Made by a program: the position numbers and the translations under genes. The notes under the pieces are model-generated. The model had not been told where the DNA came from. It searched no databases and was given only the letters and a program-made list of their open reading frames with translations. DNA of 64,000 nucleotides, taken from Escherichia coli (GTDB taxonomy: Bacteria; Pseudomonadota; Gammaproteobacteria; Enterobacterales; Enterobacteriaceae). Location of the stretch: the NCBI RefSeq assembly GCF_003334405.1, contig NZ_QOWM01000003.1. The stretch is one strand, 5' to 3'. Shown one piece after another: positions 1-10,388 of the stretch; positions within the stretch are counted from its first letter, which is position 1, and each line of letters begins with the position of its first letter.

Positions 1-74
1 TGCGTTCAATTGGACTCGAACCAACGACCCCCACCATGTCAAGGTGGTGCTCTAACCAACTGAGCTATGAACGC
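1..74 (-). tRNA. valV: tRNA-Val (anticodon GAC), 3'-truncated by the window edge; the CCA end lies outside
   Basis: Reverse complement of 1..74 reads GCGTTCATAGCTCAGTTGGTTAGAGCACCACCTTGACATGGTGGGGGTCGTTGGTTCGAGTCCAATTGAACGCA, with cloverleaf-compatible acceptor stem, D-loop AGCTCAGTTGGTTAGAGC, anticodon loop CTTGACATG and T-loop GGTTCGAGTCC. Copy assignment (valV rather than valW) is by synteny with ydhQ. Confidence 0.93.
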
Positions 75-381
75 AACGTTGTAGGTGACAACGGGGACGA
101 ATATTAGCGGCAGAGTGGGAAGGTGGCAAGAGGCAAAACGTAATTTTCTGCGCTATTTCGACCGTTTGCAGAGCTTTTAAGCAAATTGGCTATATTTTGT
201 TGATTTGCAAGGGTGATTTTTATTCAGGATCGCATTTACATCTGATACAACCCAATAATTCGTGTATCAGAGTTTAAACAGAGTTGTTTGCCACCATCTC
301 AAATCTGTCGTGGATAAATCCTCCGTAGCCTTTACACTTAGGTAGCAATAAAGGCACACAGATGCAGCAAAGGAATAAATC

Positions 382-1638
382 ATGGGATCTGATGCGAAAA
401 ACTTGATGAGCGACGGGAACGTGCAAATTGTTAAGACCGGCGAGGTCATTGGCGCGACGCAACTTACTGAAGGCGAGTTGATTGTTGAAGCTGGCGGAAG
501 AGCCGAAAATACCGTGGTCACGGGGGCTGGCTGGTTGAAAGTGGCAACCGGTGGGATCGCCAAATGCACACAGTACGGTAACAATGGCACGCTATCGGTC
601 AGCGATGGTGCCATTGCCACAGATATTGTTCAGTCCGAGGGAGGCGCAATTAGTCTCTCTACGCTCGCTACGGTTAATGGCCGCCATCCCGAAGGTGAAT
701 TCAGCGTTGATAAAGGTTATGCCTGCGGTTTGTTGCTGGAAAATGGCGGTAACCTGCGTGTACTGGAAGGACATCGCGCGGAAAAAATCATTCTCGATCA
801 AGAGGGCGGCCTGTTGGTTAATGGGACAACCTCAGCGGTCGTGGTAGATGAAGGTGGTGAATTGTTGGTGTATCCAGGTGGGGAAGCCAGCAATTGTGAG
901 ATTAATCAGGGCGGCGTTTTTATGCTGGCCGGGAAAGCCAGTGATACGTTGCTTGCTGGTGGCACCATGAATAATCTCGGTGGTGAAGACTCTGACACTA
1001 TTGTTGAGAATGGATCCATTTATCGTCTGGGGACGGATGGCCTTCAGCTCTACAGTTCCGGTAAGACGCAAAACCTGTCCGTGAATGTGGGTGGTCGGGC
1101 TGAAGTGCATGCCGGTACGCTGGAAAACGCGGTAATACAAGGTGGGACAGTGATCCTGTTGTCACCCACCAGCGCGGACGAAAATTTTGTCGTAGAGGAA
1201 GATCGCGCACCGGTTGAACTGACCGGGAGTGTTGCATTACTGGACGGCGCTTCAATGATTATTGGTTATGGCGCAGAGCTGCAACAATCAACGATTACTG
1301 TACAGCAGGGCGGTGTGTTGATTCTAGACGGCAGTACGGTAAAAGGTGACGGTGTCACTTTCATTGTTGGTAACATCAATCTGAATGGTGGAAAACTGTG
1401 GCTGATCACTGATGCGGCAACGCATGTGCAACTGAAAGTGAAACGCCTGCGCGGAGAGGGAGCGATTTGCCTGCAAACCAGTGCAAAAGAAATTTCACCT
1501 GACTTCATCAATGTGAAAGGGGAAGTTACCGGGGATATACACGTTGAGATAACAGATGCCAGTCGGCAAACTCTGTGTAACGCTCTGAAATTACAGCCAG
1601 ACGAAGACGGGATTGGCGCAACGCTCCAGCCTGCGTAA
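382..1638 (+). CDS. ydhQ: Autotransporter-passenger-like (adhesin-related) protein, 418 aa; no obvious N-terminal signal peptide or C-terminal beta-barrel
   Basis: Full-length ORF with a Gly/Val/Thr-rich repetitive beta-helix-like sequence; position between tRNA-Val and mdtK matches K-12 ydhQ. Confidence 0.85.
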   Translation: MGSDAKNLMSDGNVQIVKTGEVIGATQLTEGELIVEAGGRAENTVVTGAGWLKVATGGIAKCTQYGNNGTLSVSDGAIATDIVQSEGGAISLSTLATVNGRHPEGEFSVDKGYACGLLLENGGNLRVLEGHRAEKIILDQEGGLLVNGTTSAVVVDEGGELLVYPGGEASNCEINQGGVFMLAGKASDTLLAGGTMNNLGGEDSDTIVENGSIYRLGTDGLQLYSSGKTQNLSVNVGGRAEVHAGTLENAVIQGGTVILLSPTSADENFVVEEDRAPVELTGSVALLDGASMIIGYGAELQQSTITVQQGGVLILDGSTVKGDGVTFIVGNINLNGGKLWLITDAATHVQLKVKRLRGEGAICLQTSAKEISPDFINVKGEVTGDIHVEITDASRQTLCNALKLQPDEDGIGATLQPA

Positions 1639-1645
1639 AAATACA

Positions 1646-1678
1646 GGCGCAACCCGTGAAGGTTGCGCCTTGTCTTTA

Positions 1679-1680
<2 letters not shown>
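1646..1680. terminator. Bidirectional rho-independent terminator between convergent ydhQ and mdtK
   Basis: Hairpin GGCGCAACC-CGTGAA-GGTTGCGCC followed by TTGTCTTTATT on the + strand; a T-run (revcomp of TAAAAATACAG) follows it on the - strand. Confidence 0.6.
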
Positions 1681-3073
<1,393 letters not shown>

Positions 3074-3266
3074 TTATATGAGAGACTAAAAAGCCGCCTG
3101 AATGGGCAGCAAAAAGAAGAAGCAGGGGAAATTCAGTCTATTGTAGCGAGGATTTATTAATTCTCCAGTGAAAAAATAGCCATTCTTACCCCTTCACTGG
3201 TAAGGGCGTTTTCCACCTGCTATTGTGCTGAACAGAATGTCTTAACTGATTTCAGGAGTTGTAAGT

Positions 3267-3908
3267 ATGTTTACGGGGATTGTACAGGGCACCGCAAAAC
3301 TGGTGTCGATTGACGAGAAACCAAATTTTCGTACGCATGTGGTGGAGTTACCCGACCACATGCTGGACGGCCTGGAAACCGGTGCTTCCGTGGCGCATAA
3401 CGGTTGCTGCCTGACCGTGACGGAAATTAACGGCAACCATGTCAGTTTTGACCTGATGAAAGAAACGTTACGCATTACCAATCTTGGCGATTTAAAAGTG
3501 GGGGATTGGGTAAACGTTGAGCGTGCGGCGAAATTCAGTGATGAAATTGGCGGACACTTAATGTCAGGTCATATTATGACCACTGCTGAAGTGGCGAAAA
3601 TATTAACCTCAGAAAATAATCGCCAGATCTGGTTTAAAGTCCAGGATAGTCAGTTGATGAAATATATTCTGTACAAAGGATTTATTGGCATCGACGGTAT
3701 TAGCCTGACCGTCGGCGAAGTCACGCCAACGCGTTTTTGCGTCCATTTAATTCCGGAAACACTGGAACGCACGACTCTTGGGAAGAAAAAACTTGGCGCA
3801 CGCGTCAACATTGAAATCGATCCACAAACTCAGGCAGTGGTAGATACGGTAGAACGTGTGCTGGCGGCACGAGAAAATGCCATGAATCAACCAGGCACAG
3901 AAGCCTGA
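3267..3908 (+). CDS. ribC: Riboflavin synthase alpha subunit, 213 aa
   Basis: [51 protein letters not shown]... shows the internally duplicated lumazine-binding fold typical of riboflavin synthase (ribC, also called ribE). Confidence 0.95.
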
Positions 3909-3914
3909 TCTGAA

Positions 3915-3937
3915 ATCGCCCCCGGAGAGGGGGCGAT
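3915..3937. terminator. Bidirectional terminator hairpin between convergent ribC and cfa
   Basis: ATCGCCCCC-GGAGA-GGGGGCGAT perfect GC-rich hairpin immediately after the ribC stop and before the cfa stop. Confidence 0.55.
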
Positions 3938-3947
3938 AGAATAGCCT

Positions 3948-5096
3948 TTAGCGAGCCACTCGAAGGCCGTTTTCAACACCGCGTGAGAACACGACCTGCC
4001 AGAGCTGAATATCACGGGCGCGGAAAGCACCTGCACAGGCATTCAGATAATAGGTAAACATTCGTTTAAAGCGTTCACTATAGTTATCCGCAATTTCTGG
4101 CCATGCGGCGAGGAATCGTTCATACCACGCCATCAACGTAGTATCGTAATCAGCACCGAAGTTATGCCAGTCTTCCATCACAAAGTGGGGTTCGCTGGAC
4201 TGAGCAATCTGGCGTACAGAGGGCAGGCAACCGTTCGGAAAAATATATTTATTAATCCAGGGATCAACATTCAGATCGGTTTTTTTCGAACCGATAGTAT
4301 GGAGCAGGAATATGCCTTCCGGTTTCAAATTACGATCCACCACCGCAAAATAGGTATCGTAATTTTTCGGTCCGACGTGCTCGAACATCCCCACAGAAAC
4401 AATACGATCAAACTGGTCGTTCAGGTCACGATAATCTTGCAGCAAAATGGTGACATCCAGGCCTTCACAGCGTTCCTGAGCCATTTTTTGCTGTTCGGCA
4501 GAAATGGTGACGCCCACCACGCTTACGTCATAATTAGATGCCATGTAGTGTGCCAGTCCGCCCCAGCCGCAGCCAATATCCAGTACGCGCATCCCTGGTT
4601 TTAACTGCAATTTTTCACAAATCATTTTGAGCTTCGCCTGCTGGGCAGATTCCAGATTATCGGCATCTTTCCAGTAAGCGCAGGAATATTGCATGAAGGG
4701 ATCAAGCATGCGGCTGAACAAGTCATTACCCAAATCGTAATGCTCTTTGCCGACTATCCAGGCACGTTTTTTACTCTGCAGATTGAAGAGACGAGCGCCG
4801 GCAATACGCAGCGTGTCTTTGAAATGATGGGGGAGTTGGTTCTCGAGACCTGCGCGTAAGACTTTGCTAAAAAACATATCCAGTCGGTCACATTCCCACC
4901 AGCCATCCATATAACTTTCGCCTAACCCCAAAGAGCCTTCTTGCAGAACGCGTTTAAAAAAATCGGGGTTTTTCACACGAATATCCGCCGGGGCAGAACC
5001 GTTAATGGCTATACCGGCACGGCTAAGTAATTCGTTGGCGATACGGTACCAGTTGTCATCCGGTACACTGACTTCTTCTATACACGATGAACTCAT
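3948..5096 (-). CDS. cfa: Cyclopropane-fatty-acyl-phospholipid synthase, 382 aa
   Basis: ORF carries the SAM-binding motif VLDIGCGWGGLA and is full length for Cfa. Confidence 0.96.
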   Translation of the reverse strand: MSSSCIEEVSVPDDNWYRIANELLSRAGIAINGSAPADIRVKNPDFFKRVLQEGSLGLGESYMDGWWECDRLDMFFSKVLRAGLENQLPHHFKDTLRIAGARLFNLQSKKRAWIVGKEHYDLGNDLFSRMLDPFMQYSCAYWKDADNLESAQQAKLKMICEKLQLKPGMRVLDIGCGWGGLAHYMASNYDVSVVGVTISAEQQKMAQERCEGLDVTILLQDYRDLNDQFDRIVSVGMFEHVGPKNYDTYFAVVDRNLKPEGIFLLHTIGSKKTDLNVDPWINKYIFPNGCLPSVRQIAQSSEPHFVMEDWHNFGADYDTTLMAWYERFLAAWPEIADNYSERFKRMFTYYLNACAGAFRARDIQLWQVVFSRGVENGLRVAR

Positions 5097-5386
5097 AGTT
5101 TCTCCATCACTGGTCGGTGATCAGAACCTTAAAACAGCGTAGACGCTTTTTGGGCTTTGTGAGAAATCTCGCAGAAAAAACCGCGAGTCTATAATCCGAC
5201 GTAGAACAGAGGGAAAGGAGGAACCCTTGCCGAAATGACTATCCATAGTGAGTCGGGAACGATCCTGTCCCCGTAAAAACATAATATTTATCGTAGCTTT
5301 AACAACTCGAAATTAGTATAGGCCGCTAATTTCAATCATACAACAAAATTTTGTTAGCAGCCTAAGTATAAGTATATCGATATAGA

Positions 5387-6598
5387 TCAGTGTGATTCGC
5401 TATGAGCGACTTCGGCATTGCCATGATTCTGGCAGCCAACTTCTTCACAACGTTGCATCATGTAACCCAGCGCGACCAGCACTACTGTTGATAACATCAC
5501 GCTGGTGGTGGTGAGCAATGGCGTGCTGATACTGATCAGCCAGGAAACTACCAGACTTGCGAGGAAGCACAGACCCAGTTGAAGAGTGTTCTGCAACGCT
5601 GCGGCGCGACCAGTTGCGTGTGGGAAGGGACGCAGCGCCTGGGCGACAACAATAGGGTAGATCGCGCCATTGGCAATCGCCATCACACAGAATGGGATCA
5701 GGATTTCGACCAGCGACACATGGCTAATGAAGCCCGCAGCCCAGGTCGCAATGACGCTGACAGCAAACAGCACCAGCAACCACGGTAATAACTGCTTGCC
5801 TTGCCATTTCTGCAGCGCGGCGCGACAGCCATAACCACCAATCAGAAACGCGATAGTTTGCGGGACATAACTTAAACCAATAACTGCCGGGTTGTAGCCC
5901 ATTTCACTAAGGATGAACGGTGAACCGGTCAGCCATGCAAAAAAACTGGCTGAACAGGCTGCGTATATCAGCACGTTGCCGCGATAGGTTTTAGAACGTA
6001 GCAGGTCGGTAAAGGTCAGACCATCCTGACTATTGTTACGGGCCTTCGTCGTGGGTTTGAGCCAGAAAATAGGCAGAATCAGCACCACGGTAATGGCAAA
6101 CAGGGTGGCGAAAATCGCCTGCCAGGAAAAATGGACCAGCAGCCAGCTTCCTAACAGAGGAGCCAGTGCCGGAGATAGACCCACCAGCGGCATGATGGTC
6201 GCAAAAATACGGTTAACTTTCTGTGAAGGATAATAATCTGTCACTAATGCTTGCCAGATAACCGCCGCGGCGCAGACACCCACAGCCTGTACAAAACGCA
6301 ATACCAGCAGCGTAGCGGCGTTTTCTACCCACAGCATCCCCAGACTACCTAACGCAAAAATTGTCAGGCCGATTAATAATACCGGTTTACGACCATAACG
6401 GTCGGAGAGCGGCCCCCACAGAAGCTGGGCTGCGGCAAAACCGGCAAGGAACAGACTAAGGCTGGCACTGACAGCAGACGCAGGCGTTTGCAGGTCGGCC
6501 TGTATGGCGGCGAAAGCAGGCAGATACATATCGGTTGCCAGAAAACCGAGTACGCTCAAACCCGCCAGCCAGACTAAAAATCTTTTCCCAGGTTGCAT
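5387..6598 (-). CDS. ydhC: MFS transporter (purine nucleoside exporter PunC/YdhC), 403 aa
   Basis: 12-TM MFS-like ORF, divergent from the LysR regulator ydhB as in K-12. Confidence 0.9.
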
Positions 6599-9218: not shown

Positions 9219-10388
9219 ATGAAAATTAACTATCCGTTGCTGGCGCTGGCGATTGGCGCGTTTGGTATCGGGACAACGGAGTTCTCGCCAATGGGCTTGT
9301 TGCCCGTCATTGCGCGCGGTGTGGATGTCTCGATTCCCGCTGCCGGAATGTTAATCAGTGCCTATGCAGTTGGCGTAATGGTTGGCGCGCCGCTGATGAC
9401 GCTTCTACTTTCTCATCGTGCCCGCCGCAGTGCGTTGATTTTCCTGATGGCAATTTTCACGCTCGGCAACGTACTTTCCGCCATCGCGCCGGATTATATG
9501 ACCCTGATGCTTTCACGCATTTTGACCAGCCTGAATCACGGAGCATTTTTTGGTTTGGGTTCAGTCGTGGCCGCAAGCGTGGTGCCAAAACATAAACAGG
9601 CCAGCGCAGTTGCCACTATGTTTATGGGGTTAACCCTGGCAAATATCGGTGGCGTGCCGGCGGCGACCTGGTTGGGTGAAACCATCGGCTGGCGGATGTC
9701 ATTTCTGGCAACGGCGGGGCTGGGAGTGATTTCAATGGTAAGTCTGTTCTTCTCATTACCTAAAGGTGGTGCAGGGGCACGACCTGAAGTGAAAAAAGAG
9801 CTGGCGGTATTAATGCGTCCGCAGGTGCTGTCTGCATTGCTGACGACGGTACTGGGAGCTGGTGCAATGTTTACTCTCTACACCTATATCTCTCCGGTAC
9901 TGCAAAGTATTACCCACGCAACACCGGTGTTCGTCACGGCAATGCTGGTGCTGATTGGTGTCGGATTCTCTATCGGTAACTATCTCGGCGGCAAACTGGC
10001 AGATCGTTCAGTTAACGGCACGTTGAAAGGCTTTTTGTTGTTGTTGATGGTGATTATGCTGGCAATCCCGTTCCTGGCCCGCAATGAGTTCGGCGCAGCT
10101 ATTAGCATGGTGGTGTGGGGCGCAGCAACCTTTGCGGTCGTACCGCCGTTACAGATGCGCGTGATGCGTGTCGCCAGTGAAGCGCCAGGTCTGTCTTCAT
10201 CAGTCAATATTGGTGCCTTTAATCTTGGAAATGCGCTGGGAGCAGCTGCTGGTGGTGCGGTAATTTCCGCTGGGCTGGGATACAGCTTTGTGCCGGTGAT
10301 GGGAGCGATTGTCGCGGGACTGGCATTATTGCTGGTGTTTATGTCAGCCAGAAAACAACCTGAAACAGTTTGCGTTGCTAACAGCTAA
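9219..10388 (+). CDS. ydhP: MFS transporter YdhP, 389 aa
   Basis: 12-TM MFS-like ORF; a GAGGTGGAGATAAGGC ribosome-binding region precedes the ATG. Confidence 0.92.
   Translation: MKINYPLLALAIGAFGIGTTEFSPMGLLPVIARGVDVSIPAAGMLISAYAVGVMVGAPLMTLLLSHRARRSALIFLMAIFTLGNVLSAIAPDYMTLMLSRILTSLNHGAFFGLGSVVAASVVPKHKQASAVATMFMGLTLANIGGVPAATWLGETIGWRMSFLATAGLGVISMVSLFFSLPKGGAGARPEVKKELAVLMRPQVLSALLTTVLGAGAMFTLYTYISPVLQSITHATPVFVTAMLVLIGVGFSIGNYLGGKLADRSVNGTLKGFLLLLMVIMLAIPFLARNEFGAAISMVVWGAATFAVVPPLQMRVMRVASEAPGLSSSVNIGAFNLGNALGAAAGGAVISAGLGYSFVPVMGAIVAGLALLLVFMSARKQPETVCVANS

Follow-up and report, generated by a model that had tools for sequence, protein, structure and literature searches.

The closest described systems to YdhQ are the autotransporter passengers Ag43 (PDB 4kh3, 7koh, 7ko9 and 7kob), AIDA-I and TibA (4q1q), which share with YdhQ a succession of strand-loop-strand rungs of about 19 residues each. 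Structural alignments give 14 to 25% identity to YdhQ, and sequence matches have E-values from 1e-25 to 3e-13. In contrast to these proteins, YdhQ has no signal peptide, no linker and no barrel, and its junction domain is incomplete. It is also short, at 418 aa against 948 positions in the Ag43 profile and 1,287 in the AIDA-I profile. Moreover, unlike Ag43 and AIDA-I, YdhQ as expressed stays in the cytoplasm, as judged from fusions (PMC13101318). The gene has already been named and annotated, and both the leaderlessness of its product and its cytoplasmic folding are in print (PMC13101318).

We analysed ydhQ in a 64,000-nucleotide stretch of Escherichia coli DNA (contig NZ_QOWM01000003.1), which we call the window. 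Three points are new: the gene is under purifying selection across the genus rather than decaying, YdhQ terminates inside a Pertactin-type junction domain, and ydhQ appears to have entered a 150-bp spacer between mdtK and valV on the promoter side of the tRNA gene. These findings change little for the field as a whole. The explanation that we favor is that ydhQ is probably a stand-alone passenger fragment of the AIDA-I/Ag43 type, kept by selection, and that its product is most likely soluble and cytoplasmic.

Layout of the ydhQ locus

The features of the locus, with positions counted from the first letter of the window, are as follows.

1..74, minus strand: valV (tRNA-Val); the window starts inside the gene and the last 3 nt (CCA) are absent (sequence reading, RefSeq)
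101..129, minus strand: sigma-70-like promoter match TTGCCA-17-TAATAT, just upstream of valV (consensus scan)
370..375, plus strand: AAGGAA ribosome-binding site, 6 nt before the ATG (direct sequence reading)
382..1638, plus strand: ydhQ coding sequence, 418 aa plus stop (open reading frame list, PRK09945, RefSeq annotation)
1645..1670, no strand assigned: GC-rich hairpin with T-runs on both strands, terminator-like, between the convergent ydhQ and mdtK (terminator scan)
1679..3052, minus strand: mdtK (MATE efflux transporter), the synteny anchor (open reading frame list, annotation)

The open reading frame at 382..1638 is annotated in RefSeq E. coli genomes as ydhQ or as AIDA repeat-containing protein, and its product belongs to the NCBIfam YdhQ equivalog PRK09945, which it matches over residues 1-418 of 418 with 940.6 bits against a cut-off of 830. 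In-frame stops upstream rule out a longer N-terminus, and the sequence AAAGGAA is kept at the orthologous Escherichia loci.

ydhQ is oriented divergently from the tRNA-Val gene and convergently with mdtK. The first-pass annotation had placed ydhQ divergently beside a tRNA-Val gene, and we agree: valV is real and is cut by the edge of the window (its reverse complement reads GCGTTCATAGCTCAG...ATTGAACGCA). ARAGORN reported no tRNA in the window. We regard this as an artefact, overruled by sequence reading and RefSeq annotation; the program misses valV because the window edge truncates the gene and its CCA end is gone. In a genome that is 100% identical, RefSeq annotates two tRNA-Val genes at the corresponding place. 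The promoter-like match at 101..129 falls in about 100 nt that are conserved with other genera and, as a consensus match alone, it counts as a candidate promoter. The consensus scan matched no sigma-70 promoter on the plus strand upstream of ydhQ. On the far side of the gene, mdtK retains 86-99% amino-acid identity across 80 species loci.

YdhQ is built like an autotransporter passenger

Two domain-level features lie within the ydhQ coding sequence.

406..1014, plus strand: aa 9-211, AIDA-type strand-loop-strand rungs, each about 19 residues long (PF16168, TIGR04415, structural model)
1366..1590, plus strand: N-terminal two-thirds of a Pertactin-type junction domain, aa 329-403 (PF03212, positions 1-78 of 121)

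From its sequence, YdhQ had been described as Gly/Thr/Val-rich and repetitive. The glycine content (15.3%) bears this out, but the enrichment in valine (9.1%) and threonine (7.9%) is merely moderate; leucine and alanine make up 10.5% and 8.1%. Repeats are present as well, but they are weak and degenerate: self-similarity has maxima at offsets of 17-19, 36-37 and 54-55 residues, and offset 54 alone exceeds the highest value reached at any offset in every one of 500 shuffles.

Was the resemblance to a passenger nonetheless correct? Pfam matches PF16168 to YdhQ at aa 9-48, 31-69, 99-159, 147-193 and 166-211, significant matches having E-values of 2.2e-22, 1.1e-4 and 6.2e-4, and the TIGR04415 repeat reaches 43.2 bits where 30 are required, which places YdhQ among the AIDA-repeat proteins. 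It falls well short of the models for whole adhesins, scoring 88 bits with NF033177 (Ag43/Cah) and 53.8 bits with NF033176 (AIDA-I) against a cut-off of 1,200. A sequence search of the PDB returned Ag43 and AIDA-I-family passengers (E 1e-25).

The AlphaFold2 model of YdhQ (pLDDT 90, pTM 0.87) is all-beta, with strands that repeat about every 19 residues. Its best Foldseek matches were Ag43, TibA, pertactin, Hap and IgA1 protease, with E-values of 2e-11 to 1e-2 for Ag43, TibA and pertactin. Hence, the structure prediction for which the first-pass annotation had asked yielded no fold other than a beta-helix, the best matches being passenger beta-helices, and by its all-beta model and these fold matches YdhQ has the beta-helix of a type Va passenger. 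The claimed likeness is upheld by the AIDA and Pertactin matches in Pfam, by the PDB matches and by the predicted structure. Judged by sequence, YdhQ is homologous to the passenger of AIDA/Ag43-type autotransporters. In it, about eleven beta-helix rungs of 19 residues would precede the N-terminal two-thirds of a Pertactin-type junction domain.

YdhQ lacks the parts needed for type Va secretion

YdhQ had further been said to have no signal peptide and no room for a C-terminal barrel, and both statements hold. No hydrophobic core is present in residues 1-50, where the Kyte-Doolittle mean over 11 residues peaks at 1.25, residues 1-10 carry one K/R and one D/E and so have no net basic charge, and the reading frame is closed upstream; SignalP 6.0 is negative for YdhQ, too (PMC13101318). 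All orthologues begin with MGSDAKNL or MGSEAKNL. As for the barrel, neither PF03797 nor TIGR01414 matches YdhQ in Pfam or NCBIfam, and the stop codons of ydhQ and mdtK are 40 bp apart. A lipobox and a TPS domain were likewise not found in YdhQ, alongside the missing leader and barrel. When the sequences on either side of ydhQ (window 100-420 and 1590-1700) were compared by blastx with 174 relatives, no autotransporter-like coding remnant was seen outside the open reading frame itself.

The Pertactin-type junction domain (PF03212), which we regard as the autochaperone region of classical autotransporters, is itself incomplete in YdhQ: positions 1-78 of the 121 are present and the last 43 are missing. 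Full-length relatives are informative here. A word-indexed protein search recovered close orthologues only, and the full-length relatives came from an exhaustive search of representatives. The best non-orthologous matches, P0026 (1,534 aa, Ag43/AIDA-like), P0174 (916 aa) and P0154 (978 aa), are encoded on metagenomic contigs; they are paralogues, at 31-38% identity, and all have barrels. P0026 is 38% identical to YdhQ (E 3e-75) and, unlike YdhQ, has an N-terminal extended signal peptide as well as its barrel. P0174 and P0154 are collinear with YdhQ residues 154-400 and have BafA-like C-terminal halves. None of the three was found at the mdtK-valV site among the 80 species loci.

The junction motif L-x-G-x-G-T...D-x-L-x-V-x-G aligns between YdhQ and these full-length relatives. 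In P0174 the Pertactin domain is complete (456-575, model positions 2-120) and is followed by an Autotransporter barrel (658-896), whereas YdhQ has neither. The C-terminal half of YdhQ aligns to P0174 residues 292-526, and the 390 residues beyond consist of the rest of the Pertactin domain and the PF03797 barrel. YdhQ thus ends about 390 residues short of its full-length relatives. We also considered P0107 (657 aa), an apparent leaderless larger form with passenger plus barrel, and rejected it as an ancestor: it is 37% identical to YdhQ, and its sequence resembles a piece of Ag43 whose C-terminus has been scrambled, which probably comes from a broken gene.

Apart from the passenger beta-helix, then, YdhQ has none of the parts of a type Va autotransporter that we looked for, namely a leader, a complete junction domain and a linker with barrel. 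Without a leader, the end of the junction, an alpha-helical linker and a 12-stranded barrel, YdhQ therefore cannot take the type Va route out of the cell.

Localization and possible function of YdhQ

The YdhQ protein has been detected by proteomics (PMC6561319). Fusions to YdhQ without a signal peptide are fluorescent and cytoplasmic; agarase carried on YdhQ without an added signal peptide shows no external activity, and addition of a signal peptide leads to display activity (PMC13101318). YdhQ has been proposed as an "autotransporter" display scaffold despite having no barrel. The first-pass annotation had offered, as one of two possibilities, that YdhQ is a cytoplasmic beta-helix protein. 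This possibility fits the evidence best, given the passenger homology, the all-beta model and the lack of a leader and of a barrel. We conclude that YdhQ is most likely a passenger fragment that has been domesticated and that remains, folded, in the cytoplasm.

What might such a protein do? A soluble beta-helix could serve in the cytoplasm as a binding surface or scaffold, rather than as a surface adhesin. High-throughput data hint at EF-Tu and RNA as candidate partners: YdhQ copurified with EF-Tu (PMC2672614) and is among 17 new RNA-binding candidates (bioRxiv 10.1101/2023.07.03.547468). Because EF-Tu copurification and RNA-interactome capture are two independent high-throughput hits, a bolder proposal can be framed, in which YdhQ would be the first autotransporter passenger to be domesticated intracellularly, as a cytoplasmic beta-helix with RNA or the translation machinery as its ligand; Escherichia would have gained the gene once, at its base, and selection would have kept it. 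High-throughput screens are the source of both associations, and EF-Tu often turns up as a contaminant; we consider this bolder proposal unlikely.

Perhaps YdhQ reaches the surface after all, by a signal-peptide-independent route or through the barrel of another protein in trans, and acts there as an adhesin in early adhesion or biofilm formation? The early-adhesion claim presumably originates with Roux et al. 2005. A requirement for ydhQ in early adhesion and the presence of positively selected sites are given in PMC9110714, and PMC13101318 cites Roux et al. 2005 for YdhQ as an adhesin-like autotransporter. The display activity of YdhQ once it is given a signal peptide, for which a protein with no barrel offers no ready explanation, is in keeping with such a role. 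So are an FlhDC SELEX peak in the ydhQ-valV spacer (PMC9962212) and the placement of the gene name YDHQ with the AidA-type adhesins (COG3468) where extracellular-vesicle proteomes were compared (PMC10458587). However, in the fusion experiments the protein stayed cytoplasmic and the agarase externally inactive unless a signal peptide was added, and YdhQ has no leader, lipobox, TPS domain or barrel. The FlhDC site falls within a part of the spacer that genera without ydhQ share, and may therefore belong to valV, and for the adhesion claim PMC9110714 is a secondary source. A surface adhesin thus seems to us a doubtful description of YdhQ, and we retain the soluble cytoplasmic passenger fragment as the better one.

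Probable insertion of ydhQ between mdtK and valV

Comparison with other genera resolves the spacer into a shared and an inserted part.

75..190, no strand assigned: spacer upstream of valV common to other Enterobacteriaceae; similarity stops at about 175-190 (comparison by eye)
191..1675, no strand assigned: Escherichia-specific insertion of about 1.5 kb, boundaries approximate (gap comparison)

The comparison by eye used the 141-200 nt mdtK-valV spacers of Salmonella, Citrobacter, Enterobacter, Leclercia, Klebsiella, Trabulsiella and Atlantibacter. Of 66 loci from other Enterobacteriaceae species, 44 have mdtK and tRNA-Val separated by just 141-212 bp; a gap of about 1.6 kb occurs solely where ydhQ is present. 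The insertion holds the 5' region of ydhQ, ydhQ and its own terminator, which has replaced the ancestral mdtK terminator; the stem at 1645..1670 is unlike the mdtK terminators of other genera in sequence. We infer that a segment of about 1.5 kb, comprising the open reading frame, its 5' region and the terminator, entered the 150-bp spacer in an ancestor of Escherichia. The entry would have been on the promoter side of the tRNA gene, by a mechanism that left no integrase or repeat scars.

The first-pass annotation had pointed to tRNA genes as integration hotspots, and one could suppose that ydhQ is what is left of an integrase-borne adhesin island that inserted at valV and lost everything else. 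The mdtK-valV interval is indeed variable, with unrelated cargo of 0.4-4.8 kb in 18 of the 66 loci. In Kosakonia oryzendophytica (L073 9864..17274), moreover, an aah-aidA-like module of the same repeat family as YdhQ stands beside mdtK and the corresponding tRNA-Val pair; its adhesin is an intact AIDA/Ag43-type autotransporter of 2,176 aa, with a barrel and an Aah/TibC heptosyltransferase partner, both of which YdhQ lacks. Yet this adhesin is 28-30% identical to YdhQ and lies on the 3' side of the tRNA genes, whereas ydhQ is on the 5' side of valV, upstream of the valV promoter. Integrase-borne islands classically target the 3' end of a tRNA gene. Entry on the promoter side therefore makes the idea of a tRNA island inapplicable.

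Other marks of an island were absent as well. As the first-pass annotation had stated, there is no direct repeat and no integrase: a search for a second tRNA 3' end (last 21 nt, up to 3 mismatches) found none in the 64-kb window, and a collinear genome of 99.9% identity has no integrase or transposase annotated in the parts that correspond to window 1-5700 and 14001-63905 (87% of the window). The GC content of ydhQ (51.5%) is that of its surroundings (window, 51.0%), the flanks hold no coding remnants, and the 3' side of valV has the usual valW-ydhR in the annotated genome. Hence, the locus displays neither 3'-end insertion with a repeat nor a mobility gene with atypical composition, and an island origin is very improbable. 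The suggested comparison with intact autotransporters at the valV site came out against it too: none of the 80 sampled species, which do not include E. fergusonii, has a larger autotransporter in the mdtK-valV gap.

Purifying selection on ydhQ

The ydhQ orthologues of five Escherichia lineages all have 418 codons, and that of a sixth lineage has 419; they contain no stops or frameshifts, and the five are free of indels. In all 10 pairs of these five lineages dN/dS was 0.08-0.11 at dS values of 0.15-1.15. The nonsynonymous fraction was 0.36, where 0.75 would be expected under neutrality (binomial p = 3e-41). A more distant syntenic orthologue (L081-L083; 71% identical, 419 aa) likewise gave a dN/dS of about 0.1. 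The ydhQ region was matched in all 5,426 complete E. coli genomes, at 80% or more in one place in 5,425; the lone split copy is interrupted by ISEcp1.

None of the hallmarks of a pseudogene (stops, variable length, dN/dS near 1, patchy presence) was found. The earlier suggestion that ydhQ is a decayed remnant does not withstand these data: the same architecture is seen throughout Escherichia, with no larger ancestral form. By comparison of the orthologues, ydhQ is a gene maintained by purifying selection across Escherichia and not a decaying relic. Since its insertion, the 418-codon frame has been held by this selection, and the protein is made.

E. coli K-12 has other autotransporter pseudogenes, which we counted for a relic. 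Still, that ydhQ is a functionless relic, a dead adhesin-gene fragment awaiting erasure, is strongly disfavoured and hardly credible: the absence of both parts required for type Va export, the stop in the middle of the Pertactin domain and the tolerated deletion would suit it, but not the constant length, the dN/dS of about 0.1 held to dS of about 1 or more with neutrality rejected, the presence in every complete genome with one split exception, or the protein seen by proteomics. A strain deleted for ydhQ has been used as the parental background, and the locus for integration (bioRxiv 10.1101/2023.03.28.534373), and the laboratory phenotype is therefore presumably mild. The locus is thus in use for deletion and integration, yet the gene is under purifying selection.

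The constraint is not as strong as on the neighboring gene. mdtK has a dN/dS of 0.014-0.030; that of ydhQ (0.1) is four to five times as high, and the constraint on ydhQ is therefore moderate. It appears weaker in the C-terminal quarter, where dN/dS reached up to 0.30 in one comparison.

The ydhQ locus

The ydhQ gene, its annotation and the leaderless, cytoplasm-folding behavior of its product are already published. We add the gene's evolutionary history: it entered once, at the level of the genus, 5' of valV, is under purifying selection and has a defined point of truncation. The observation holds, but it is an ordinary one. All 5,426 of 5,426 complete E. coli genomes match window 1-1700 at 95-100% identity (one strain at 100%), and the annotation under this match reads tRNA-Val, "ydhQ: AIDA repeat-containing protein" and mdtK.

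Features of the ydhQ locus (window coordinates)
1-74, minus strand: tRNA-Val gene (valV), CCA end outside the window
6 nt 5' of the ydhQ ORF: ribosome-binding site, AAGGAA
382-1638, plus strand: ydhQ ORF, 418 aa
1645-1670: hairpin, terminator-like on both strands, between convergent ydhQ and mdtK
1679-3052, minus strand: mdtK, convergent with ydhQ

In-frame stops upstream of the ORF exclude a longer N-terminus. ARAGORN reported no tRNA in the window because the window starts inside the tRNA-Val gene and the CCA end is cut off. Past that edge valW and ydhR come next, as in other E. coli.

ydhQ lies in a single insertion between mdtK and valV

In each of 80 species genomes we extracted the mdtK locus and sought tRNA-Val and YdhQ homologues downstream of mdtK. 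A tRNA-Val was located in 66 of the 80 loci, and in 44 of these only 141-212 bp separate it from the mdtK stop; among them are Salmonella, Citrobacter, Enterobacter, Leclercia, Lelliottia, Klebsiella, Kosakonia, Trabulsiella and Atlantibacter. ydhQ occupies the gap (~1.6 kb) only in the four Escherichia loci with usable sequence: E. whittamii, E. albertii and two other lineages. Comparing spacers, we assign window 75 to ~175-190 to the ancestral region upstream of valV. The E. coli terminator hairpin is unlike the one that ancestrally follows mdtK. From both observations we place the Escherichia-specific segment at ~191-1675. We conclude that ydhQ lies in a single insertion within the mdtK-valV spacer.

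Eighteen other loci have a gap of 0.4-4.8 kb in place of the usual ~150 bp (L015, L018, L024, L040, L041, L043, L044, L048, L054, L056, L061, L066, L068, L069, L070, L071, L076 and L080). None of the 14 examined held a YdhQ relative in the gap. Judged by N-terminal sequences only, their ORFs look like an unrelated mix (LysR-type regulator, dehydrogenase, porin and permease, for example). The interval is clearly variable, a place where genes have been gained repeatedly and where no mobility genes are obvious. By the same N-terminal sequences, Raoultella and Klebsiella gaps apparently carry a LysR-type regulator plus dehydrogenase and a His/Lys-rich secreted protein, Citrobacter sp. R56 a porin and permease, Pseudescherichia a short-chain dehydrogenase, and Phytobacter and Kosakonia small membrane proteins.

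A near-invariant block, GCTTTTAAGCAAATTGGCTATATTTTGTTGATTTGCAAGGG (window ~174-215), sits just inside the Escherichia-specific segment. It is kept from E. coli to E. albertii and in a lineage whose YdhQ is 71% identical, while the following ~100 nt diverge freely. This block may hold the promoter or other regulatory sequence of ydhQ; the scan gave no plus-strand sigma-70 consensus upstream of the gene.

ydhQ is under purifying selection

Was ydhQ a decayed remnant of an adhesin island, as the first-pass annotation had proposed as one of two readings? Five Escherichia alleles all have 418 codons, with no stop before the terminal one, and Nei-Gojobori dN/dS was 0.078-0.111 in 10/10 pairs (dS 0.15-1.15); the neighboring mdtK gave 0.014-0.030 in the same comparison. 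Between E. coli and E. albertii, the nonsynonymous share of differences was 0.36, where neutrality predicts 0.75 (binomial p = 3e-41). The distant 71%-identity orthologue (419 aa, from metagenomic contigs, dN/dS ~0.1) is syntenic, with the valV promoter region on one side and an mdtK of 95% protein identity on the other. The C-terminal quarter seems slightly less constrained (dN/dS 0.11-0.30). The main 418-aa cluster has 8,778 member sequences, Shigella included, and a contiguous copy is missing in only 1 of 5,426 complete E. coli genomes. There, in strain AR_0013 (NZ_CP032204.1; locus L085, 3382..6299), an ISEcp1 insertion leaves ydhQ as two annotated pseudogene halves. We conclude that purifying selection has acted on ydhQ since before the E. 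coli/E. albertii split; constant length, low dN/dS and a near-universal contiguous copy argue against decay. An exhaustive search returned no larger YdhQ orthologue; among full-length relatives the best match, P0026 (1,534 aa, carrying a leader and a barrel), shares just 38% identity. The remnant proposal is thus contradicted by the refuting condition that the first-pass annotation itself had named.

Insertion sequences are seldom seen at the locus: besides AR_0013, strain CEC01302 (NZ_AP026114.1) carries an IS3-family element within the matched ydhQ-tRNA-Val region.

An origin by integration at the tRNA, which the same annotation had raised, fares no better. Integrase-mediated islands classically target the tRNA 3' end. 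The Escherichia-specific segment with ydhQ sits 5' of valV, on its promoter side, the GC content of ydhQ is native, and no autotransporter-like coding remnants were found in the flanks of the gene. As had been noted earlier, the tRNA 3' end is not repeated (no second copy of its last 21 nt elsewhere in the window). Neither an integrase nor a transposase is annotated over window 1-5700 and 14001-63905 in a collinear genome of 99.9% identity. Taken together, these observations disfavor an island origin, and a tRNA-island mechanism is not supported.

In Kosakonia oryzendophytica an adhesin module lies beside the same tRNA-Val locus, but across the tRNAs from where ydhQ sits, and its adhesin is only 28-30% identical to YdhQ. 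The module (L073, 9864..17274), just 3' of a tRNA-Val pair (9525-9678), comprises an intact 2,176-aa AIDA/Ag43-type autotransporter (barrel TIGR01414 at 1736-2161) preceded by an Aah/TibC-type O-heptosyltransferase gene.

YdhQ is a passenger fragment without leader or barrel

Pfam finds AIDA repeats in YdhQ (best E 2.2e-22) and a Pertactin domain at residues 329-403 that covers model positions 1-78 of 121 only. By sequence score (940.6 bits versus a cut-off of 830), YdhQ is assigned to the curated NCBIfam YdhQ equivalog, PRK09945; the Ag43 and AIDA-I models match partially, far under their cut-offs. A PDB sequence search returned Ag43/AIDA-I-family adhesin passengers (E 1e-25 to 4e-22) and TibA (E 2.8e-13). 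Glycine makes up 15.3% of residues, and the internal repeat signal is weak, above shuffles at the best offset. An AlphaFold2 model built on an alignment of six orthologues and nine trimmed relatives (pLDDT 90, pTM 0.87) is all-beta, with short strands every ~19 residues; Foldseek matches it best to Ag43, TibA and pertactin, and more weakly to IgA1 protease and Hap passengers. YdhQ resembles Ag43, AIDA-I and TibA passengers in both sequence and predicted fold.

Nothing resembling a signal peptide occurs in residues 1-50, in agreement with a negative SignalP 6.0 result (PMC13101318), and neither Pfam nor NCBIfam matches a barrel. The 916-aa metagenomic autotransporter P0174 has a complete Pertactin domain (456-575) followed by an Autotransporter barrel (658-896); YdhQ residues 154-395 align with P0174 292-526. 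From this alignment and the partial Pertactin match, YdhQ corresponds to the C-proximal ~400 residues of a passenger, ending two-thirds into the junction domain. Because three of the four classical features tested (leader, complete junction domain, barrel) are absent, YdhQ falls outside the classical autotransporter family. We conclude that it is an AIDA/Ag43-type passenger fragment, modeled as a beta-helix, with no leader or barrel, which bears out the initial description.

The model's only internal low-confidence stretch, residues 264-274 (window 1171-1203), falls in an acidic loop at ~258-277 (SPTSADENFVVEEDRAPVEL), a ~5-11-residue insertion in the YdhQ family relative to aligned full-length autotransporters.

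Role of YdhQ

YdhQ has been seen by proteomics, with a 5.5-fold change with vanillin (PMC6561319), copurifies with EF-Tu (PMC2672614) and is one of 17 previously unannotated RNA-binding candidates (bioRxiv 10.1101/2023.07.03.547468). Fusions without a signal peptide are folded and cytoplasmic (PMC13101318). We infer that YdhQ is most likely a soluble beta-helix that offers a binding surface in the cytoplasm. Against such a role, surface display was reported once a signal peptide was added, in work that casts YdhQ as an "autotransporter anchor scaffold" (PMC13101318). Such display lacks a mechanism and needs controls, the protein being barrel-less by Pfam and NCBIfam. Also against it, a passage in PMC9110714 states that ydhQ is necessary for early adhesion. 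The routine use of a ydhQ deletion as a parental background is likewise counted against a cytoplasmic role. The early-adhesion statement presumably stems from Roux et al. 2005.

Elsewhere in the window, the copy number of a ~96 bp tandem repeat in rsxC (~37487-37911) differs from that in strain 300709, otherwise 99.9% identical to the window; the difference appears as overlapping, offset BLAST pieces.
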